Virus record (IMG/VR): IMGVR_UViG_2537561827_000016
Source of the DNA: a virus
Taxonomy: Duplodnaviria; Heunggongvirae; Uroviricota; Caudoviricetes
Strand: one strand, 5' to 3'
Length of the DNA: 31,901 nucleotides
A program made the translations under genes and the position numbers. How positions within the stretch are numbered: the stretch's first letter is position 1; each line of letters begins with the position of its first letter. This document shows positions 1-10,101 of this stretch, piece by piece. The notes under the pieces are model-generated. The model made no database searches and was not told the DNA's origin. It saw only the letters and a program-made list of their open reading frames with translations.

Positions 1-501
1 ATGCGCATAGTTACCGCTGCCGTCATGGCCTCAACGCTGGCAGTCAGTTCATTAAGCCACGCTGCTGAAGTCGGTTCAGGCGATAACTGGCATCCGGGTG
101 AAGAACTTACGCAGCGCAGTACGCAGAGCCATATGTTCGACGGCATAAGTTTAACCGAACATCAGCGTCAGCAGATGCGAGATCTTATGCAACAGGCCCG
201 GCACGAACAGCCTCCTGTTAATGTTAGCGAACTGGAGACAATGCATCGCCTTGTCACCGCAGAAAATTTTGATGAAAACGCTGTGCGCGCACAGGCAGAA
301 AAAATGGCGAATGAGCAAATTGCTCGTCAGGTTGAGATGGCAAAAGTCCGCAACCAAATGTATCGCCTGTTAACGCCGGAGCAGCAAGCGGTTTTAAACG
401 AGAAACATCAACAACGAATGGAGCAGTTGCGCGACGTGACGCAATGGCAAAAAAGTTCATCGTTGAAGCTATTGAGTAGTAGCAACTCACGTTCCCAGTA
501 G
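1..501 (+). CDS. cpxP: Periplasmic stress adaptor CpxP (host gene flanking the prophage)
   Basis: The 166-aa translation reads as enterobacterial CpxP from my recall (signal peptide [36 protein letters not shown] and [22 protein letters not shown] motifs). Followed by a strong intrinsic terminator. Confidence 0.93.
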
Positions 502-541
502 TAAACCCTGTTTTCCTTGCCATAGACACCATCCCTGTCTT

Positions 542-568
542 CCCCCACATGATGTGGGGGTTTTTTTT
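542..568 (+). terminator. Rho-independent terminator of cpxP
   Basis: GC-rich inverted repeat cccccacat / atgtggggg followed directly by a run of eight T. Confidence 0.8.
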
Positions 569-687
569 ATCAATTACTTACATGCAATCAAAAGTAAAAA
601 CAGTCACTTATCGAAAGCTGTAAGGGTTTGGAGTGGTTTCAAAATTTCTTGAGTGTGGACACTATGTGGACACTCAGAGGGGGAAAT

Positions 688-1668
688 TTATAACGTCACT
701 CCGCCTTTTAGTGGATTCAGAGCGACGGCATTTTGCAGGTAGTCAGGCGCAAGGTGCGCATAGGCCATCGTCTGCTGAATGCTCGCATGTCCCAGAATCT
801 GTTGCAGTGCGATTATATTGCCCCCATTCATCATGAAATGGCTTGCGAATGTATGCCGCAGGATGTGGGTTGCCTGATTGGGTGGTATATCAGGTTTCAC
901 TCTGCGTAAAATCCCGCAAAATTTCTCATAATCAACTTTGAATAATTTGGCGCTGGCCTCCTCTTTAACTTTTTTCTCCAGTTCCTCAGAAATCGGCACG
1001 GTTCGCTTTTTACCGTTTTTGGTTTTCAGGAAGGTAACCCTGCAATTTGTAATCTGTGCTGGTTTTAGCGTGGCAACTTCCGTCCATCTTCCTCCAGTGC
1101 TCAGACATAAAAGCGCGACAAGTAAGTCATCACCAGCCAAAACATTTAACAGTTTTGCGATTTCTGCTTTTTCCAGGAACGTCATTTCAGGGTTGGCCTC
1201 CGCCAGTGGCGGCAGTCCGTGAATTGGGGGTTGCCCGGAAAATTCATCCAATTGAATTAATTTTGTGAACATGCCGGATAATCGGTACATGTCACGGTTT
1301 ATCGTTGCGGCACTGATACCATCACGTAGTCGCATGGAACGATAATCCATCAAAGCCCTTTTGCTCATCCGGCTCACTGGTATATCACCTATGCCGCTGA
1401 TGGTTTTGAGTAGATGATTAAACTCTTTTGTTCCATGCTCGTGGTTTTGCCCGTGATATTTCCACCAGATGTCCAGCAACTCACTCAAAGTTCGGCGGTC
1501 TGCTCGCTGGCCTCCCCATTCTTTCTGACTGGCATTGGCGATTGTGTATCGCTCAAATGCTAGTGCTTCAGCTTTTCTTTCGAATTTCCTGCGGATGCGT
1601 TTTCCGTCGCGACCGCGAGGTCTAATGTCCACTTCATAGCGACCATCATCGAGCTTCTTAATTGCCAT
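688..1668 (-). CDS. int: Tyrosine-type integrase, P2/186 family
   Basis: N-terminus MAIKKLDDGRYEVDIRP matches P2 Int as recalled; C-terminal catalytic region has HxLRHT-like (ATHILRHTFASHFM) and terminal MAYAH tyrosine motif. ATG at 1668 preferred over the upstream alternative start; GAGGG RBS just upstream on the minus strand. Confidence 0.9.
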   Translation of the reverse strand: MAIKKLDDGRYEVDIRPRGRDGKRIRRKFERKAEALAFERYTIANASQKEWGGQRADRRTLSELLDIWWKYHGQNHEHGTKEFNHLLKTISGIGDIPVSRMSKRALMDYRSMRLRDGISAATINRDMYRLSGMFTKLIQLDEFSGQPPIHGLPPLAEANPEMTFLEKAEIAKLLNVLAGDDLLVALLCLSTGGRWTEVATLKPAQITNCRVTFLKTKNGKKRTVPISEELEKKVKEEASAKLFKVDYEKFCGILRRVKPDIPPNQATHILRHTFASHFMMNGGNIIALQQILGHASIQQTMAYAHLAPDYLQNAVALNPLKGGVTL

Positions 1669-1737
1669 AAGAAAGCCCTCCGGCGCTGTATTCACCATCT
1701 TGGTAGCAAATGGTGAAAATGTAATCTTTATATAGAG

Positions 1738-2031
1738 TTAGCCAATCCTTTTCGCGGAGTGGTTGGACTCTGTTGACTCTGGCCCAATGTGCGCGAGAGC
1801 CGGTGCGATTTGTCCTGCGTCCGGCGCGGTTTTATCTGTCATAAGCCATAGAGCATATTTTTGGAATGTGGGATGCATAGTGATTTTTAGCAAAGCTGTG
1901 CCACCGGGTTCAAAGTTTCCTCCTTCATATTTTTTAAGTGTGCTTAGCGGTAACTCTATGATTTCACAGAATTTTGATTGGCTTAGCCCTTCAGCCTCAC
2001 GCAAGGCCTTAATCTTTTCGCTTAATTTCAT
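1738..2031 (-). CDS. C: Immunity repressor, P2 C-like (HTH)
   Basis: 97 aa; the FQKYALWLMTDKTAPDAGQIAPALAH segment matches the P2 C repressor C-terminus as recalled. Divergent from cox, as in the P2 lysis-lysogeny switch. Confidence 0.85.
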   Translation of the reverse strand: MKLSEKIKALREAEGLSQSKFCEIIELPLSTLKKYEGGNFEPGGTALLKITMHPTFQKYALWLMTDKTAPDAGQIAPALAHIGPESTESNHSAKRIG

Positions 2032-2152
2032 TTGACATGGTGCCTATATAGGGACTAAATTCCCTCAAAACTGGAACCTATATAGGTTCCATTGATTTGA
2101 GAATAAACCAGCGTCTAAACGGTTTTGAGTGGTTTAGAAAGGGCTGGATCCT
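2032..2152. promoter_or_regulatory. C/cox divergent switch region with candidate Pe/Pc promoters and operator palindromes
   Basis: TTGACA at 2032-2037 with CTAAAT 17 bp downstream (candidate rightward Pe). CCTATATAGG at 2043-2052, and again at 2077-2086 inside a perfect 18-bp palindrome GGAACCTATATAGGTTCC (2073-2090). Confidence 0.5.
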
Positions 2153-2440
2153 ATGAGGGTACCATATATGGACGCTGAAAATTATGTGATTCAGTATCCG
2201 CTTGATGCGGTTCATGTGGATAAATTTGCTGATTTATTAGGGAAGCCAAAGACAGCCGTCAGTGAAATGGTGAAAGCAAATAAATTACCAATTATTGAAT
2301 TGCGTGATCCTTGCAAACCGAAGGCTCGTGCCGGTGAAAAATGGGTTTTCATTCCTGAGTTTAATCGCGCTGTACGTGAGGCGTTTTATAACCGACCGGT
2401 TGAACAGCGTGATGCATGGCTCTTGTGGATGGGGTTGTGA
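2153..2440 (+). CDS. cox: Cox-like excisionase / switch regulator
   Basis: Position and size (about 90 aa) match P2 Cox, with some similarity to it (LPIIELRDP, WLLWMGL end). An alternative start at ATG 2168 has better GAGGG RBS spacing. Confidence 0.75.
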   Translation: MRVPYMDAENYVIQYPLDAVHVDKFADLLGKPKTAVSEMVKANKLPIIELRDPCKPKARAGEKWVFIPEFNRAVREAFYNRPVEQRDAWLLWMGL

Positions 2441-2442
2441 TT

Positions 2443-2613
2443 ATGAATGAGCCGCGTTGTATTGCTCAGTTACTGCGTAACGAAAGCCCCAGGGCGATTG
2501 ACTTCACCATCACCCACGGGAAGGGGCGCAAGGGAATCATTATCCGCACCAAAAAACAGAGTCCGTTAAAGAAGGCTCTGACCTTTCTGAAAAGCCGGAG
2601 GGTATGGAAATGA
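2443..2613 (+). CDS. Small basic early protein (P2 orf78 position)
   Basis: 56-aa ORF from ATG 2443, between cox and B; Lys/Arg-rich. No recognised domain. Confidence 0.45.
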   Translation: MNEPRCIAQLLRNESPRAIDFTITHGKGRKGIIIRTKKQSPLKKALTFLKSRRVWK

Positions 2614-3110
2614 CAGTGATGACGCTTAATCTCGTTGAAAAACAGCCAGCAGCTATGCGCCGGATAATTGGTAAGCATCTTGCCGTCCCTCGCTGGCAGG
2701 ATACATGTGATTATTATAATCAGATGATGGAGCGCGAACGGTTAACGGTTTGCTTCCATGCGCAGTTAAAACAACGTCACGCAACGATGCGTTTTGAAGA
2801 AATGAACGACGTCGAACGTGAACGGCTGGTTTGTGCAATTGATGAACTGCGTGGGGCATTCTCAAAACGCCGTCAGGTCGGTGCAAGTGAGTATGCATAT
2901 ATTAGTTTTTTAACAGTCAGTCAGCGCCGTACTTTATTTATGCATGCCGGATTGACTGAAAAAGAATTCAACCAGCCATACTGGCGAATTAATGAAGAAT
3001 CATGTTACTGGCGTGATGCCTTATTCCGTGCATTACGTGAATTATTCAGCCTGTTTGAGTATGCACCGACAATTCTGACGTCGGTTAAACCAGAGCAATA
3101 TCTGCATTAA
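2604..3110 (+). CDS. B: Replication protein B-like (putative helicase loader)
   Basis: 168 aa, same position and size as P2 gpB; GGAGGG RBS upstream of ATG 2604. Identity inferred mainly from synteny. Confidence 0.6.
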   Translation: MEMTVMTLNLVEKQPAAMRRIIGKHLAVPRWQDTCDYYNQMMERERLTVCFHAQLKQRHATMRFEEMNDVERERLVCAIDELRGAFSKRRQVGASEYAYISFLTVSQRRTLFMHAGLTEKEFNQPYWRINEESCYWRDALFRALRELFSLFEYAPTILTSVKPEQYLH

Positions 3111-3173
3111 ATAATTAACCAGAGTTTTTAACGCACTTAATCGTGCGGGGCTTCTTTTTGCCTGGAGAAAGTC

Positions 3174-3398
3174 ATGCATACAGTTTCTGAAAATCAGTGC
3201 GGTAAATACGCATTACTGCTGCAACAGGCCAGAACCGAAGCACAGGCCGATGCAGCGACGCGCTTTTCTTCTCATCTTGACGCCATGATTCGCCACATCA
3301 CAAAGGCGGAGTTATCCCGCGTGGAGATAGTCGAGCTGCTCAGTCAGGAGTCGGAAAAATTTCACAATATCGGATTGTCTCGCGGGGAGGTGCTTTGA
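3174..3398 (+). CDS. Hypothetical early protein (P2 orf80 position)
   Basis: 74-aa ORF in the early rightward operon; end overlaps the next ORF start (ATGA). Confidence 0.5.
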
Positions 3399-3697
3399 TG
3401 TCCTGTTCTCGTTCAGTTGTATTACTGAACAATGCCTTAAAAATCTCCGTTATGAAAAATGGCGATTTGTCTCTTATTCAACTTAGGCTTGATAAAGAAA
3501 AACACGAAATAACTGAATCTGTTATCGCGATTTATCAGAACGAATTAAACCTCCTGTCTGATGTGGTCAATTTACTTGTGAAACGCGCTGTATTTCACAA
3601 GCAAATTTCCTCCGTGGATGAACTGACAAAATTAACGACAGAACTTGTCATTTATTGCGCTGATGTATCCAGGAAACTTAACGATAAAAGGAGCTGA
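3395..3697 (+). CDS. Hypothetical protein, AT-rich early-operon ORF
   Basis: 100-aa ORF in the early operon; visibly more AT-rich than neighbouring genes. No recognised motif. Confidence 0.5.
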
Positions 3698-3699
3698 TA

Positions 3700-3924
3700 A
3701 TGCCGGACAACGTAGATTTTATTCAGGAACAACAGGCTGAATTACTGGAGCGCCAGATTAACGCGGCAAGGGTAAAACATTGCGGTGCTTCTGCGCTGGT
3801 TTGCGAAGAGTGTGACGCGCCAATACCTGCTGCCCGTCGTGCGGCTTATCCGTCAGCCACGCGTTGTGTTTCCTGTCAGTCAGTCTTTGAAGCAAAAAAC
3901 AAACATTACCGGAGAATGGCATGA
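3700..3924 (+). CDS. TraR/DksA-family C4 zinc-finger protein (P2 orf82-like)
   Basis: 74 aa with CxxC...CxxC arrangement (CEECDAPIP ... CVSCQ) typical of phage TraR/DksA-like proteins. Confidence 0.7.
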   Translation: MPDNVDFIQEQQAELLERQINAARVKHCGASALVCEECDAPIPAARRAAYPSATRCVSCQSVFEAKNKHYRRMA

Positions 3925-4196
3925 GTATTCGTATTGAAATTGGCGAACGTTATGTCGTTACCAGTGACAGCTTTCAGTTTATTCTCCACGAGAGAAAGAG
4001 AGCGGAAAGCGGTAAAAACGCCGGTCAGGAATGGCTGGCAGTGGTTGGTTATTACCCGAAATTAAGCCAGCTCGTTTCCGGCCTGATGCATCACGATATT
4101 CTGACCGGAAGCGCAAAATCTTTTGCTGATTTAAACGCGCAGGTTGAGCAACTCAGCAAGCGTTGTTCAGAGGCTTTTGGCTCATATGGCCGTTAA
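3921..4196 (+). CDS. Hypothetical early protein (P2 orf83 position)
   Basis: 91-aa ORF immediately upstream of and overlapping the A gene start. Confidence 0.5.
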   Translation: MSIRIEIGERYVVTSDSFQFILHERKRAESGKNAGQEWLAVVGYYPKLSQLVSGLMHHDILTGSAKSFADLNAQVEQLSKRCSEAFGSYGR

Positions 4197-6462
4197 AGCC
4201 TCCGGGCGTTTTGTCCCTCCGTCAGTATTTGCCGCAGGCACCGGTAAGGCGTTTACCGGTGCTTATGCATGGAACGCGCCACGCGAGGCTGTCGGGCGCG
4301 AAAGACCCCTTACACGTGACGAGATGCGTCAGGTGCAGGGGGTTTTATCCACGATTAACCGCCTGCCTTACTTTTTGCGCTCGCTGTTTACTTCACGCTA
4401 TGACTACATCCGGCGCAATAAAAGCCCGGTGCACGGGTTTTATTTCCTCACATCCACTTTTCAGCGTCGTTTATGGCCGCGCATTGAGCGTGTGAATCAG
4501 CGCCATGAAATGAACACCGACGCGTCGTTACTGTTTCTGGCAGAGCGTGACCACTATGCGCGCCTGCCGGGAATGAATGACAAGGAGCTGAAAAAGTTTG
4601 TTGCCCGTATCTCATCGCAGCTTTTCATGATGTATGAGGAACTCAGCGATGCCTGGGTGGATGCGCATGGCGAAAAAGAATCGCTGTTTACGGATGAGGC
4701 GCAGGCTCACCTCTATGGTCATGTTGCTGGCGCTGCACGTGCTTTCAATATATCCCCGCTCTACTGGAAAAAATACCGTAAAGGGCAGATGACCACGAGG
4801 CAGGCATATTCTGCCATTGCCCGTCTGTTTAACGATGAGTGGTGGACTCATCAGCTTAAAGGCCAGCGTATGCGCTGGCATGAAGCGTTACTGATAGCTG
4901 TCGGGGAGGTCAATAAAGACCGTTCTCCTTATGCCAGTAAACACGCCATTCGTGATGTGCGTGCGCGCCGCCAGGCAAATCTGGAATTTCTTAAATCGTG
5001 TGACCTTGAAAACAGGGAAACCGGCGAGCGCATCGACCTTATCAGTAAGGTGATGGGCAGTATTTCTAATCCTGAAATTCGCCGGATGGAGCTGATGAAC
5101 ACCATTGCCGGTATTGAGCGTTACGCCGCCGCAGAGGGGGATGTGGGGATGTTTATCACGCTGACCGCGCCGTCAAAGTATCACCCGACTCGTCAGGTCA
5201 GAAAAGGCGAAAGTAAAACCGTTCAGCTTAATCACGGCTGGAACGATGAGGCATTTAATCCAAAGGATGCGCAGCGTTATCTCTGCCGCATCTGGAGCCT
5301 GATGCGCACGGCATTTAAGGATAATGATTTACAGGTCTACGGTTTGCGTGTCGTCGAGCCACACCACGACGGAACGCCGCACTGGCATATGATGCTTTTT
5401 TGTAATCCACGCCAGCGTAACCAGATTATCGAAATCATGCGTCGCTATGCGCTCAAAGAGGATGGTGACGAAAGAGGAGCCGCGCGAAACCGTTTTCAGG
5501 CAAAGCACCTTAACCGGGGCGGTGCTGCGGGATATATCGCGAAATACATTTCAAAAAATATCGACGGCTATGCACTGGATGGTCAGCTCGATAACGATAC
5601 CGGTAAGCCGCTTAAAGATACTGCCGCGGCTGTTACCGCATGGGCGTCAACGTGGCGCATCCCGCAATTTAAAACGGTTGGACTGCCGACAATGGGGGCT
5701 TACCGTGAACTACGCAAATTGCCTCGCGGCGTCAGTATTGCTGATGAGTTTGACGAACGCGTCGAGGCTGCTCGCGCTGCCGCAGACAGTGGTGATTTTG
5801 CGTTGTATATCAGCGCGCAGGGTGGGGCAAATGTCCCGCGCGATTGTCAGACTGTCAGGGTTGCCCGTAGCCCGTCGGATGACGTTAACGAGTACGAGGA
5901 AGAAGTCGAGAGAGTGGTCGGCATTTACGCGCCGCATCTCGGCGCGCGTCATATTCATATCACCAGAACGACGGACTGGCGCATTGTGCCGAAAGTTCCG
6001 GTCGTTGAGCCTTTGACTTTAAAAAGCGGCATCGCCGCGCCTCGGAGTCCTGTCAATAACTGTGGAAAGCTCACCGGTGGTGATACTTCGTTACCAGCCC
6101 CCACACCTTCTGAGCACGCCGCAGCAGTGCTTAATCTGGTTGATGACGGTGTCATCGAATGGAATGACCCGGAGGTCGTGAGGGCGCTCAGAGGTGCATT
6201 AAAACATGGCCTGAGAACACCAAATCGCCAGCAAAGAAACGGAAGCCCGTTAAAACCGCATGAAATGGCACCATCGGCCAGACTGACCCGGTCGGAACGA
6301 ATGCAAATTACCCGTATCCGCGTTGACCTTGCTCAGAACGGTATCAGGCCGCAGCGATGGGAGCTTGAGGCGCTGGCGCGTGGGGCAACCGTAAATTATG
6401 ACGGGAAAAAATTCACGTATCCGGTCGCTAATGAGTGGTCGGTTTTTTCAATTAAACAATAA
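4186..6462 (+). CDS. A: Replication initiation endonuclease A (rolling-circle nickase)
   Basis: About 758 aa from ATG 4186 (MAVKASGRF, the P2 gpA N-terminus as recalled). HWHMMLF HUH motif and a downstream tyrosine-containing region; very close to P2 A. The ORF track's upstream TTG start at 4144 is not preferred. Confidence 0.92.
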   Translation: MAVKASGRFVPPSVFAAGTGKAFTGAYAWNAPREAVGRERPLTRDEMRQVQGVLSTINRLPYFLRSLFTSRYDYIRRNKSPVHGFYFLTSTFQRRLWPRIERVNQRHEMNTDASLLFLAERDHYARLPGMNDKELKKFVARISSQLFMMYEELSDAWVDAHGEKESLFTDEAQAHLYGHVAGAARAFNISPLYWKKYRKGQMTTRQAYSAIARLFNDEWWTHQLKGQRMRWHEALLIAVGEVNKDRSPYASKHAIRDVRARRQANLEFLKSCDLENRETGERIDLISKVMGSISNPEIRRMELMNTIAGIERYAAAEGDVGMFITLTAPSKYHPTRQVRKGESKTVQLNHGWNDEAFNPKDAQRYLCRIWSLMRTAFKDNDLQVYGLRVVEPHHDGTPHWHMMLFCNPRQRNQIIEIMRRYALKEDGDERGAARNRFQAKHLNRGGAAGYIAKYISKNIDGYALDGQLDNDTGKPLKDTAAAVTAWASTWRIPQFKTVGLPTMGAYRELRKLPRGVSIADEFDERVEAARAAADSGDFALYISAQGGANVPRDCQTVRVARSPSDDVNEYEEEVERVVGIYAPHLGARHIHITRTTDWRIVPKVPVVEPLTLKSGIAAPRSPVNNCGKLTGGDTSLPAPTPSEHAAAVLNLVDDGVIEWNDPEVVRALRGALKHGLRTPNRQQRNGSPLKPHEMAPSARLTRSERMQITRIRVDLAQNGIRPQRWELEALARGATVNYDGKKFTYPVANEWSVFSIKQ

Positions 6463-6663
6463 TGACTACTACTGCAGTGTTGTGGGAATGTTATAGTGTT
6501 TGTGGAATTTTTCTATGAAAAACAATGAATTAATCTGTTTTTCATATTGAGCTAATTTTTTATGGCCACAGTTGTTAAAAAGTGAGAACATAATCTTGTT
6601 CAAAACCTGCTTCTATATACGGAGGCTTTCGCTATAATACGCGGTCGGTTTTAGGAGGGGATA

Positions 6664-7608
6664 ATGCCAACAGTAGTTTCACTTTTTTCTGGATGCGGTG
6701 GTTCCGATGCGGGGGTTTTGAGAGCCGGCTTTGATGTGCTTATGGCCAACGATATCTTGCCGTATGCGCGCGATGTTTATATTGCCAATCATCCAGAAAC
6801 TGATTACATATTAGGCAATATTGCTGATGTAACTACTTTTCCTAAATCTGATTTGCTGGTAGGTTGTTATCCATGTCAGGGATTCAGCCAGGGTGGTGCG
6901 CGTAAAGCCGATCGAAAAATTAATACTCTTTATTTAGAGTTTGCTAGAGCTTTAAACAATATAAAGCCTAAAGCTTTTATAGTAGAAAACGTGTCTGGTA
7001 TGGTTAGAAAAAATTTTGAGCATTTGTTATCTGACCAGATCAGGGTTTTTACTGAAGCAGGTTATACTGTTTCCGCAAAAGTTTTAAATGCGGCTGAATA
7101 TGGAGTAGCGCAGGAAAGAAAAAGAATATTTATCGTAGGAATCCGTAATGATTTCAAAGTTAAGTACGAGTTCCCTCAGCCAACTCATGGGCCAGCAACT
7201 GGCGTCAACTATGTTACTATTAAAGATGCTATAGGGCATTTACCTGAATGGCCAGAAGGGGAATTTTATGATATGGGATTCCATTGGTATTATATGTCTC
7301 GCAATCGTCGCCAGGATTGGGATCAAATTTCAAAGACAATAGTTGCTAATGCAAGGCATATGCCGTTGCATCCTGTCAGTCCTCCGATGGAGAAAGTAAG
7401 AACTGATGAATGGAGATTTGTTGAGGATCGGAGAGCTCGCAGATTCAGTTTTCGAGAGGCAGCACTATTACAAGGGTTTGAGGATCTAGTGTTTCCAGAA
7501 ACAAATGCTGCAAGTCTTGGCATGAAATACACGGTGGTTGGTAATGCAGTGCCTCCGCCGCTTTTTGAAGCTGTAACGAAGGCATTGCCAATAGAATTAT
7601 GGGATTGA
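6664..7608 (+). CDS. DNA (cytosine-5)-methyltransferase
   Basis: Canonical C5-MTase motifs in order: FSGCGG (I, AdoMet binding), PCQGFS (IV, catalytic Cys), ENV (VI), QERKRIF (VIII), REAALLQGF (IX) and GNAVPPPLF (X). AGGAGGGG RBS upstream; TATAAT at 6633-6638. Confidence 0.9.
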   Translation: MPTVVSLFSGCGGSDAGVLRAGFDVLMANDILPYARDVYIANHPETDYILGNIADVTTFPKSDLLVGCYPCQGFSQGGARKADRKINTLYLEFARALNNIKPKAFIVENVSGMVRKNFEHLLSDQIRVFTEAGYTVSAKVLNAAEYGVAQERKRIFIVGIRNDFKVKYEFPQPTHGPATGVNYVTIKDAIGHLPEWPEGEFYDMGFHWYYMSRNRRQDWDQISKTIVANARHMPLHPVSPPMEKVRTDEWRFVEDRRARRFSFREAALLQGFEDLVFPETNAASLGMKYTVVGNAVPPPLFEAVTKALPIELWD

Positions 7609-7615
7609 TAAGCTA

Positions 7616-8605
7616 TTAAGGCTCTGGATTTAATGTATAAAGCTCTTCCTCAAATTCGCGAAACCAATCAGAGGTAGTTATCGCTTCCCATTGGTTTGCC
7701 TTATCAAGTAGATATATGATTCTCAACCTATCTAATAATAATACCCCAGCGGTTGCGTGTGTGCTTACCCATTCGCCATTTGCTTCCCGATAGAAAACAG
7801 GCGTGAACATTGTTGATGGATGCTGGAACGCAATTTGGAAATAGGTGGTCAGTTTTAACACGTTAGCCTCTAATGTTTTGCTTGGCCACCCTGTTTCTTG
7901 TGCACCACATTGACCAAGAATTCCATAGTTGCTAGTTTGACCATCAGGAAATTCCACTGTAGCAATTAGGTCAAACCCGGCATCACCAGATGTGGGAGCT
8001 CTATTTATTTCCCTTGTGTTTAAACTACAAACTCCAAGATCTTTTCCTAAAGTTTGTAGAGCTGTCCGAAGATTTGTTCCATAATAATTTTGCCTATCAT
8101 CGGAGTTAGCATCAAAAATTCTTACGGTGCCATGTGCAGGTAAGAGAGAAATCATTGCTACTTTACATACTCTGGCAAAGCTCTTTGCCCAACGTTGTGC
8201 TGCTCCTTTAATCGACTTAAAGGATCTAAGTCTAGAGCAGCAAAGAAGAAAAACATATATTCGTTGTTGTTGGTTTAGATTTTCTTTAATAATTATCTCA
8301 TCACCTGAAATTATAAATGGATATATTTTTCCAAGAGCACTTTCTCTATATTCGAGTTGTGTCCAAACATCTTCGAGTTGCTCTTCAAAACGATCATTTC
8401 TCTCAGCGTCTCCATTAATTTCTTCTTCAGAATTACATTCTTCATCAATTTCTTCAACGCTTGTTATGCCGAATTTTCTTACTGAATCTAAATCATTTTT
8501 ATGTAGTGAGTTACGTCCGGTATAATTAATTACCGTGAGTAACTCGGCTAAATCTGCAAACAAATGAGGAGAGTTGGGATGCATAACTCCTACTTCAAAA
8601 GTCAT
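7616..8605 (-). CDS. Hypothetical protein; candidate effector (possible restriction endonuclease) convergent with the MTase
   Basis: About 329-aa ORF ending 7 bp from the MTase stop, tail-to-tail; overlaps the upstream ParB-like gene by about 11 nt. Acidic cluster EEIDEECNSEEEINGDAERNDRFEEQLED. No family recognised by eye. Start chosen at ATG 8605 after the GAGG RBS; 8608 is an alternative. Confidence 0.6.
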   Translation of the reverse strand: MTFEVGVMHPNSPHLFADLAELLTVINYTGRNSLHKNDLDSVRKFGITSVEEIDEECNSEEEINGDAERNDRFEEQLEDVWTQLEYRESALGKIYPFIISGDEIIIKENLNQQQRIYVFLLCCSRLRSFKSIKGAAQRWAKSFARVCKVAMISLLPAHGTVRIFDANSDDRQNYYGTNLRTALQTLGKDLGVCSLNTREINRAPTSGDAGFDLIATVEFPDGQTSNYGILGQCGAQETGWPSKTLEANVLKLTTYFQIAFQHPSTMFTPVFYREANGEWVSTHATAGVLLLDRLRIIYLLDKANQWEAITTSDWFREFEEELYTLNPEP

Positions 8606-9716
8606 CATCACCTCTGCTATTTTTCTCTGCTATTTCAGAACCTATAAGCTTAATATGTTTATTGATTCTTCGTGCTACTTCATGGGCCTGTCTATCATAC
8701 TCTACCGTGGCAACCATGCCTGCTGCATCTATCAAAGCTGCTTCAACTTGATAAAGTAACTGGAGAAAGTCCTTAGTAATATCAGATGTCAATTGATAGG
8801 CAACTGCGAGTGGAGCCCCCATTCGGAATTGCTCCAATGCCTTAGGGCTACTTACAACAGCAGCTAGTTCTCTTAAATTACGTGATTCTCCTACACGAGT
8901 TTTTTTATCCTCGCCTTTTTTATATAACCATTCAGTTAGTTCTTTTATTTCTTTGTTCTTTAAACTCTTAGAATTGATGATAGGATGACTTGGTATTGTG
9001 TCTCCATCGTCTTCGATTGAAACTCCGACAAACTGGCCTAACCGCTCATCAGCAAGTGCTGTTGATAATACTGAAAATTTAATCGTTTCTTCATCTAGCT
9101 TTTCAATACCATAAAAATCATTTTTTTTAATGATTTCATACACCGCTAAAGCGTCTAGGTTACGCTTGATATGATCCCTACGACTGCCAATAGCTCTGGC
9201 AACCTCATAGTAGCGTAGCATTGGATCCAGATTTGCATTGGTATAATCAAAAAGCTGTTTAATATATCGAGCTTTTGATAAGGGTTCCCATTGTTTGACA
9301 CCAGTAATATGTCTGAAACCAAGGTACGGAAGAATCTCTTCTCTTGTTTGGCGCTCAATGACAGGAACACGATCGACCGTATGTTTTGCATTTGATGCAA
9401 TTTCTCGTAGTCGAGCACTTGGATTTTCACATAGTGTCGGATCGCGGAATAATTTGACCGCGGATAGGCGACGGTTTCCTTCAACTACAATGTACTTCCC
9501 CGGCGCTCCACTATCAGGAATGACAATCAATGGTTCTCCAGGGAAAAAACCATTTTCCGCAATAGCACTCATTAAGTCTTCGATAGATGTTGAGGTTGCT
9601 ATGTAGTTAATCATTCCCAATTGGTCACGAGACACGCCTTCAGGAAGTCTTGGGTTTTCTGTGTCAAGTTCCAAATCATCTAGCGGAACATAAAGTATTT
9701 CTGAATCAGCAATCAT
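8595..9716 (-). CDS. ParB/Srx-like nuclease-domain protein
   Basis: N-terminal region ILYVPLDDLELDTENPRLP ... PLIVIPDSGAPGKYIVVEGNRRLSAVKL resembles the ParB N-terminal fold (PNPxQPR-like box followed by a GxRRxxA box). C-terminal roughly 230 aa unassigned. First ATG at 9716 with GGAG RBS; the ORF track's TTG start at 9755 is not preferred. Confidence 0.7.
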   Translation of the reverse strand: MIADSEILYVPLDDLELDTENPRLPEGVSRDQLGMINYIATSTSIEDLMSAIAENGFFPGEPLIVIPDSGAPGKYIVVEGNRRLSAVKLFRDPTLCENPSARLREIASNAKHTVDRVPVIERQTREEILPYLGFRHITGVKQWEPLSKARYIKQLFDYTNANLDPMLRYYEVARAIGSRRDHIKRNLDALAVYEIIKKNDFYGIEKLDEETIKFSVLSTALADERLGQFVGVSIEDDGDTIPSHPIINSKSLKNKEIKELTEWLYKKGEDKKTRVGESRNLRELAAVVSSPKALEQFRMGAPLAVAYQLTSDITKDFLQLLYQVEAALIDAAGMVATVEYDRQAHEVARRINKHIKLIGSEIAEKNSRGDDDF

Positions 9717-9942
9717 CTGGATCTCCGTTGAACATGTCCACGAGAAGGAGCACAAAGTTATTTCATAACATGCAATATACTCATTCTGTAGCCATAAATG
9801 AATTATTCATGATGTAAGATTCGCGTTGATGTGCGTGAATTCGCAAGTAATTATACAGCAAGGTTTGATTGGGTATCGTCAGCACCAGTGCGGTTCCAAC
9901 GTACTCATGCAACTGCATTAAAACCGCCCCATGAAGCGGGCG

Positions 9943-9961
9943 GGCGAGGCGGGGAAAGCAC
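9943..9961. other. cos site (19-nt cohesive end, P2-type)
   Basis: GGCGAGGCGGGGAAAGCAC matches the P2 cohesive-end sequence as I recall it, in the expected position just beyond the portal gene Q. Confidence 0.7.
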
Positions 9962-10101
9962 TGCGCGCTGGCGGTGGTGCTGATTTTATTTTTTCAGCGT
10001 CTGAGCGCGTCTTGATGGCGTTTAGATTGTGCGCCGGGGCGTTGGTGTGTCTACGGGGTGTTTTGTGCGGTGGTGAGCGTGTGAGGGCGTGATGACGGGG
10101 T

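Follow-up and report, generated by a model that had tools for sequence, protein, structure and literature searches.

The position of tin and old in phage P2 is a defence hotspot (PMC9122126, PMC9519451). Among the loci between gpA and gpQ catalogued by Rousset et al. 2022 (PMC9122126, Table S5A/B), those encoding a DNA_methylase, a hypothetical protein and a ParBc protein form the group of rank 2, named "RM-like system" (RM, restriction-modification), with 1,136 of 18,150 loci. PD-lambda-5 (Vassallo et al. 2022, PMC9519451), a validated and broadly protective prophage system, combines a ParB/HEPN protein with a Dam-class methyltransferase (MethyltransfD12); its authors consider it a compacted "RM+Abi" system (Abi, abortive infection), the cloning of which needed a strain with a deletion of the mrr region. 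A 2026 NAR paper on P2/P4 hotspots has a main text without methyltransferases. Here, we describe a C5-cytosine DNA methyltransferase (MTase) and its two neighbours, a nuclease-like protein and a ParB/Srx-fold (ParB-like) protein, encoded in virus record IMGVR_UViG_2537561827_000016; the whole stretch analysed, 31,901 nucleotides long, is called the window. In our view it is about 70% probable that a three-gene RM-like anti-phage cassette of P2-type prophages, located between gpA and cos/gpQ, has this MTase as its modification arm.

As an enzyme, the MTase is unremarkable and its family is well known. Profile PF00145 spans the protein end to end, with residues 3-308 covering profile positions 2-322 of 324 (E = 5.5e-65, 220.4 bits, with the cut-off at 22), and the score with TIGR00675 "dcm" is 192.5 bits, the cut-off being 100.65. 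Motifs I, IV, VI, VIII, IX and X (Table 1) follow each other in the canonical order and, in the alignment, are invariant among the cassette homologs and M.HaeIII. The gene very probably encodes a functional C5 methyltransferase. The original prediction for this DNA, made from the nucleotide sequence and its open reading frames (ORFs), had proposed a compact, prophage-borne C5 MTase, intact in all its catalytic motifs and with about 100 residues between motifs VIII and IX. The profile matches and the six ordered motifs agree with this, the stretch between the two motifs measures 99 residues, and the window is a P2-like phage genome with gpA upstream of the MTase and the portal and terminase genes downstream, gpA and portal being recognised by Pfam. 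The best PADLOC model for the MTase is DruM of Druantia type II (PDLC00027, 378 bits), with which the likeness is confined to the level of the C5-MTase subfamily. Membership in Druantia type II was rejected: the partners DruE, DruF and DruG are absent, the cargo island contains three genes, and the largest ORFs of the window, of at most 815 amino acids, are phage genes.

The nuclease-like gene lies tail to tail with the MTase gene, the two stop codons being separated by 7 nucleotides. Its ORF is mechanically 331 codons long, but database entries begin at the third methionine and the 329-residue version was used. Profile searches (Pfam, NCBIfam, PADLOC) gave no match for the protein with E values of up to 10, and it belongs to a PHROG of unknown function; structure-based comparison alone was informative. 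In a structure model calculated with 33 homologs (pLDDT 84.7, pTM 0.88), the product models as a winged-helix region plus a PD-(D/E)xK fold, although a textbook (D/E)xK triad is absent. In E. coli NCTC8623 (NZ_LR134234.1), two "hypothetical protein" pieces are annotated and the cassette match measures 3,162 against 3,161; the two pieces and the extra base suggest a frameshift in the nuclease-like gene.

The ParB-like gene runs 11 nucleotides into the beginning of the nuclease-like gene, making it likely that the two are translationally coupled. The ParB-like protein matches 26 PD-Lambda-5_A models, the best with E = 4.9e-28 over residues 22-295 (7-277 of the 440 in the model), and is probably both NTP-binding (NTP, nucleoside triphosphate) and DNA-binding. 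A catalytic HEPN site was considered for the sequence RRINKH (Rx4H) of the window protein and rejected, the histidine being Asn, Asn or Thr in orthologs.

The three genes of the cassette are acquired and retained together. The window type is present in 48 of 5,426 complete E. coli genomes and is whole in each of the 48, with no partial or MTase-only copy among the 5,426. The five close MTase alleles sampled from Klebsiella, Enterobacter and E. coli (74-89% identity) all occupy the P2 hotspot, each together with two genes that converge on it. The layout, in which a gene of about 372 codons overlaps one of about 330 and a C5 MTase is convergent with them, recurs beside integrases or within unrelated prophages of Burkholderia vietnamiensis, Pseudomonas nitroreducens and a Methylophilaceae genome, with identities of 57-61%, 51-55% and 66-73% for the three proteins. 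The trio is spread over beta- and gamma-proteobacteria (Enterobacteria, Pseudomonas, Burkholderia and methylotrophs) on different mobile elements, and the exact cassette proteins are each found on at least 1,000 contigs. When one genome per species was scanned, the ParB-like gene was directly upstream of the nuclease-like gene wherever upstream sequence was present, and the MTase was convergent with the pair in 10 of the 13 non-P2 loci having at least 2 kb of downstream sequence. Two Methylophilaceae loci (L003, 7165-7929; L004, 3165-4097) contain an extra HNH_2-domain gene between the nuclease-like gene and the MTase.

The nuclease/ParB-like pair falls into two deep clades, with mutual identities of about 25% and 32% for the two proteins, while the MTase remains 76-88% identical across them; between loci L028 and L025, identities are 88% for the MTase, 24% for the nuclease and 31% for the ParB-like protein. 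Nuclease pairs that differ widely are thus served by one type of methylase, as a result of strong constraint or recombination, or of a combination of the two.

The target-recognition domain (TRD) of the MTase resembles that of M.HaeIII (PDB 1dct), to which residues 4-308 align with residues 3-320, TRD included (E = 1.4e-48; overall identity 39%). M.HaeIII is the sole solved methyltransferase that aligns through the TRD; M.HhaI and Dnmt1 align up to about residue 175. Eleven TRD positions are invariant among the cassette MTases and M.HaeIII: Ser212, Arg213, Asn214, Arg215, Trp219, Thr225, Arg231, Leu235, His236, Pro237 and Pro240. Three of these, Arg213, Arg215 and Arg231, align to Arg225, Arg227 and Arg243 of M.HaeIII, which are reported as DNA contacts in its crystal structure (Reinisch et al. 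1995). Given the TRD alignment and the eleven invariant positions, the best guess for the recognition site would be GGCC or a close relative, with the odds about even. The TRD is essentially invariant across both pair clades; therefore, all cassette MTases probably set the same mark. Site avoidance is uninformative on specificity, the ratio of observed to expected GGCC sites in the window being 0.74. For site counts, positions 1-6462 and 10101-31901 were taken as backbone and 6463-10100 as island. TGGCCA looks skewed, with 4 copies in the island and a single one in the backbone, where 12.7 would be expected; this was discarded as a clue to specificity, as many GC-rich palindromes of 6 bp are equally depleted in the backbone.

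A guanine followed by 5-methylcytosine (5mC) is an R-5mC target of McrBC; therefore, carriers of the cassette are predicted to be without mcrBC. DNA modified by M.HaeIII is reported to be McrBC-sensitive (Raleigh and Wilson 1986). Of the 5,426 E. coli genomes, 597 have K-12-type mcrBC. When cassette and mcrBC were joined into one query, 645 genomes matched, the exact sum of 48 and 597, and the equivalent query for the clade-B cassette retrieved 738, the sum of 141 and 597; the overlap is zero in both cases. As a control, the P2 portal and terminase genes occur in 1,757 genomes and their union with mcrBC amounts to 2,257, so that 97 (5.5% of the genomes with P2 genes) hold both. K-12-type mcrBC is thus found in none of the 48 window-type and none of the 104 full-length clade-B carriers, or 0 of 152 pooled against 9.2 expected (one-sided Fisher tests, p = 0.063, 0.0023 and 1.2e-4, respectively, in a statistic that ignores phylogenetic clustering). 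The zero co-occurrence suggests that the MTase is active in lysogens; it lends indirect support to a modification of the host genome, which the original prediction expected of an enzyme that functions during lysogeny.

In the mechanism we propose, the MTase would be expressed in the lysogen from its own conserved promoter and would methylate the inner cytosine of GGCC, or of a closely related short site, in chromosome and prophage. The ParB-like protein and the nuclease would form a complex cutting incoming DNA that lacks the mark, and the MTase would shield the host from the nuclease of its own cassette; as a side effect, the DNA of the lysogen would become a substrate for McrBC-type enzymes. 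The logic would be that of PD-lambda-5, a C5 methylase replacing the Dam-class enzyme and a separate PD-(D/E)xK protein replacing the fused HEPN-like end. A more speculative and rather doubtful extension is that the ParB/Srx protein is an NTP-gated (possibly CTP-gated) DNA clamp or scanner like ParB, KorB and PadC that is loaded onto DNA or slides along it, licensing the PD-(D/E)xK protein to cut only when the short site is without 5mC. The cassette (PD-(D/E)xK, m5C) and PD-lambda-5 (HEPN, m6A) would then be two variants of a new NTP-switch class of RM systems beside Types I-IV. The fold, the EGNRRL box, the coupled genes and the position of the group as second commonest cargo of the P2 hotspot fit such a switch.

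Upstream of the MTase gene, the GC fraction of positions 6463-6663 is 0.348, compared with about 0.53 in the flanking phage genes. Of 33 loci that were retrieved, 12 have the exact 14-mer TTCGCTATAATMCG (6628-6641; M at position 12) in front of the MTase; they include Klebsiella, Edwardsiella, Burkholderia and another E. coli clade of the cassette, where the DNA around it cannot be aligned. Because the 14-mer is kept where the surrounding DNA does not align, this footprint is fair evidence for a real -10 element travelling with the MTase gene. No -35/-10 pair emerged upstream of the MTase when the DNA was scanned for both sigma-70 hexamers, and the 14 copies of TATAAT in the window, against 8.6 ± 3.1 in shuffled sequences, are not a significant excess. 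An AT-rich upstream region with TATAAT at 6633-6638 and a ribosome-binding site had been predicted, and composition and coordinates bear this out. The further claim, that the MTase has its own promoter, gains from the conservation of the 14-mer across genera and loses from the missing sigma-70 pair and the unremarkable number of TATAAT copies.

Other features of this region were also observed. A TGGCCA box, which contains GGCC, is located at 6563-6568, about 65 bp upstream of the -10 hexamer, and is kept in all four aligned enterobacterial cassettes; it may be a methylation-sensitive site of autoregulation or may have arisen by chance. Four of the five TGGCCA sites of the window are in the island (6563, 6743, 7249 and 7883). 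A terminator-like hairpin with a T-run (6421-6442, plus strand) overlaps the final codons of gpA, and an antisense ORF of 44 codons (6469-6603, minus strand) occupies most of the AT-rich spacer. Klebsiella cassettes have a longer spacer with a plus-strand ORF of 63-70 codons, without a Pfam match.

Several points weigh against an RM-like cassette with the MTase as its modification arm. Methylation, cleavage and defence by the cassette are all inferred from sequence and models; the assignment of GGCC depends on TRD similarity in proteins that are 39% identical overall, and the mcrBC statistic has the clustering and, for the window-type cassette alone, the p value given above. The clade-B variant pFR107, the pair of which is 25% and 33% identical to that of the window, figures among the "additional tested systems" and not among the validated ones and, assayed in MG1655 with 8 phages, scored no defence (PMC9122126). 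Furthermore, the pair is not always tied to a C5 methylase. In a Methylococcaceae metagenome-assembled genome (L008, 1-7008), it directly follows the hsdM (N6_Mtase) and hsdS genes of a Type I system with no C5 MTase, so that another RM locus can evidently accommodate it; in L013, an IS607-type insertion is located downstream of the pair, with no adjacent C5 MTase; and in Crenothrix (L018), the pair has no DNA methylase within 6 kb. When these loci were searched for remnants or other methylases, an NPPY protein of the Crenothrix locus was rejected as a DNA MTase, being PrmC. As to pFR107, MG1655 is mcrBC+ mrr+ and the carriers exclude mcrBC; the background may therefore have compromised the clone, in which case the negative result would be uninformative.

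The same three loci favour a reading in which the two functions are separable, the pair being a methylation-independent Abi or DNA-sensing module and the MTase an independent companion transferred with it, comparable to the "RM+Abi" mosaic of PD-lambda-5. The association of one MTase type with two very different pair clades, suggesting modular exchange, and the extra HNH_2 gene of the Methylophilaceae cassettes point in this direction too. We nevertheless hold it to be unlikely, as the genes are tightly linked (with a gap of 7 nucleotides here and an overlap of 4 nucleotides in other loci), the cassette is all-or-none in E. coli, and insertion sequences (IS) strike the nuclease gene and spare the MTase. 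In sister clade B, two independent IS5-family insertions, ISKpn26 and IS5 (Table 1), cut the nuclease gene short without affecting the MTase. Loss in this direction, of the nuclease with the MTase kept, is tolerated by an RM-like module. The two elements, in unrelated isolates, are inserted at about the same place, which may be an insertion hot spot or reflect repeated selection for nuclease loss.

Alternatively, the MTase could be an orphan or anti-restriction enzyme that by itself shields phage DNA from GGCC-type restriction by the host upon infection, or reprogrammes host expression, with the neighbouring genes as unrelated cargo. Its own conserved promoter and ribosome-binding site, and its transcription opposite to the neighbours, would suit such a role, as would the size of the MTase subfamily (4,297 matches at E ≤ 1e-30, the nuclease family having 273 at E ≤ 1e-3) and its high conservation while the neighbours diverge. 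However, every sampled close relative adjoins a homologous pair, distantly related taxa and different elements preserve the arrangement, MTase-only copies number zero among the E. coli genomes, and convergent modification and restriction genes are a standard layout of RM systems, all of which makes an orphan distinctly improbable. The original prediction had left open whether the MTase is the protective half of the adjacent module or an orphan anti-restriction methylase; synteny, the 48 whole cassettes and the five sampled alleles favour the former, and no orphan copy was seen to sustain the latter. Missing from it were the nuclease-fold and ParB-like nature of the neighbours, the tin/old hotspot and the existing "RM-like" catalogue entry.

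Finally, post-segregational addiction, by which the cassette would mainly stabilise the prophage and kill cells that lose it as methylation dilutes, defence being secondary or absent, is a feature of Type II RM systems in general and would agree with the undetected defence of pFR107 and the completeness of the cassette in its carriers, but as the main role it is very improbable, given the many validated defence cargoes of the hotspot and the broad phage protection by the related PD-lambda-5, and it is compatible with an RM-like defence cassette rather than exclusive of it.

The cassette forms a cargo island of 3.3 kb with about 40% GC in a backbone of 53% GC, which takes the place of tin/old in P2 (defence hotspot #1), between gpA and cos/gpQ, and is 99.9% identical to Yersinia phage HQ103. 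GATC occurs 12 times in the backbone against 111 expected from a Markov model, and 13 times in the island against 14.7. Several 6-bp palindromes are likewise scarce only in the backbone (observed against expected): GCCGGC (4 against 28.5), CAGCTG (0 against 15.5), GGCGCC (0 against 13) and CGGCCG (0 against 10.6), besides TGGCCA. The island looks like a recent arrival not yet subject to the site avoidance of the backbone. Between the ParB-like and portal genes lies the conserved P2 cos region, at about 9925-9990 (…GCGCGCAGTGCTTTCCCCGCCTCGCC…GCTTCATGGGGCGGTTTTAATGCAG…); the record of Yersinia phage HQ103 stops at position 9942 of the window. A minus-strand TATAAT at 9850-9855 is a candidate -10 element of the nuclease operon.

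Table 1. Features of the cassette and its surroundings (window positions, unless a locus is named; aa, amino acids; nt, nucleotides)
Feature	Location	Strand	Description
C5-cytosine DNA methyltransferase (MTase)	6664..7608	+	ATG start, 314 aa; TRD aa 160-258, M.HaeIII-like; PF00145, TIGR00675, 1dct
MTase motif I	aa 7-13		LFSGCGG
MTase motif IV	aa 67-75		GCYPCQGFS; catalytic Cys71 = nt 6874-6876
MTase motif VI	aa 108-113		ENVSGM
MTase motif VIII	aa 150-159		QERKRIFIVG
MTase motif IX	aa 259-272		RRFSFREAALLQGF
MTase motif X	aa 293-300		GNAVPPPL
Nuclease-like protein	7616-8605	-	329 aa; modelled N-terminal winged-helix and C-terminal PD-(D/E)xK restriction-endonuclease-like fold
ParB/Srx-fold protein	8595-9716	-	373 aa; EGNRRL box aa 79-84; helical C-terminal part
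Conserved box, putative MTase promoter	6628..6641	+	TTCGCTATAATACG; holds -10 hexamer TATAAT, 6633-6638
Shine-Dalgarno sequence	6653..6660	+	AGGAGGGG; 3 nt 5' of ATG; kept as TAGGAGGGG in enterobacterial cassettes
Low-GC cargo island	6463..9800	.	between P2 gpA and cos/portal; GC about 0.35-0.42, flanks about 0.53
gpA replication endonuclease	4144-6462	+	Pfam
ISKpn26	L035 2478-3803		in clade-B nuclease-like gene; E. coli 98206, Egyptian isolate
IS5	L036 2154-3802		in clade-B nuclease-like gene; E. coli FXCREC123, Chinese isolate

The cassette is among the commonest cargo groups of the P2 hotspot, yet it is without a demonstrated function or mechanism. If our interpretation is correct, a sizeable part of the lysogens in E. 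coli, Klebsiella and Enterobacter would bear prophage-imposed 5mC of the GGCC type, largely missed by long-read methylome surveys. A mark incompatible with McrBC would shape which strains can hold such prophages, and this incompatibility may explain the apparent inactivity of pFR107 in MG1655. Restriction would also be driven by ParB-fold NTP switches, besides helicases and ATPases.

Our literature search found no described defence system combining ParB with a C5 MTase, no GGCC prophage methylome, and no paper assigning folds, specificity or mechanism to the cassette; a paper on M.BatI was set aside as a precedent, as it concerns an unrelated Bacillus enzyme. The "RM-like system" of Rousset et al. 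corresponds to the cassette of the window in locus and gene content, and its representative protein 1 is homologous to the nuclease-like protein; the cluster of the latter contains WP_000142508.1, one number from the listed WP_000142509. The entry is a catalogue label, and no mechanism, fold or specificity is proposed there. Compared with M.HaeIII (GGCC; PDB 1dct, 3ubt), the MTase aligns over its full length (314 against about 330 residues) and shares the TRD core SRNR...W...T...R...LHP..P, but 61% of the residues differ and the TRD loop that precedes the conserved core has a deletion of 17 residues.

Like Type II RM systems such as NgoMIV and Cfr10I with their C5 MTases, the cassette consists of a C5 MTase gene convergent with a gene the product of which is modelled with a restriction-endonuclease fold, and it is mobile and all-or-none. 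Unlike them, it has an obligatory third partner, a ParB/Srx-fold protein of the NTP-binding type coupled to the nuclease; as the gene for this partner overlaps the nuclease gene wherever upstream sequence exists, the cassette is not a two-component Type II system. A ParB/Srx-like N-terminal domain together with a nuclease is known from defence systems of the ParB superfamily (DUF262) that are aware of DNA modification, namely GmrSD, SspE and the DndB type, and DUF262 is a weak HHsearch match of the PD-lambda-5 A protein. The cassette resembles these systems in this combination. However, they are single polypeptides with HNH/DUF1524 domains that attack modified DNA or sense phosphorothioate, whereas the cassette has separate proteins, a PD-(D/E)xK-like nuclease and an MTase predicted to be protective.

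With PD-lambda-5, the cassette has in common that a compact, prophage-borne ParB-N-domain protein is paired with a DNA methyltransferase. The PD-lambda-5 B protein is a Dam-class N6-adenine enzyme (PF02086), while the cassette MTase is a C5 enzyme (PF00145). The A protein, of about 430-500 residues, ends in a weakly HEPN-like C-terminus; the ParB-like protein of the cassette has 373 residues, is homologous over its N-terminal two-thirds, and is accompanied by a separate PD-(D/E)xK-fold gene that PD-lambda-5 does not have. The cassette thus differs in both defining features of PD-lambda-5 but, by analogy, plausibly works alike. The module is a catalogued, mechanistically unexplored RM variant, distinguished by its obligatory ParB/Srx-fold partner.

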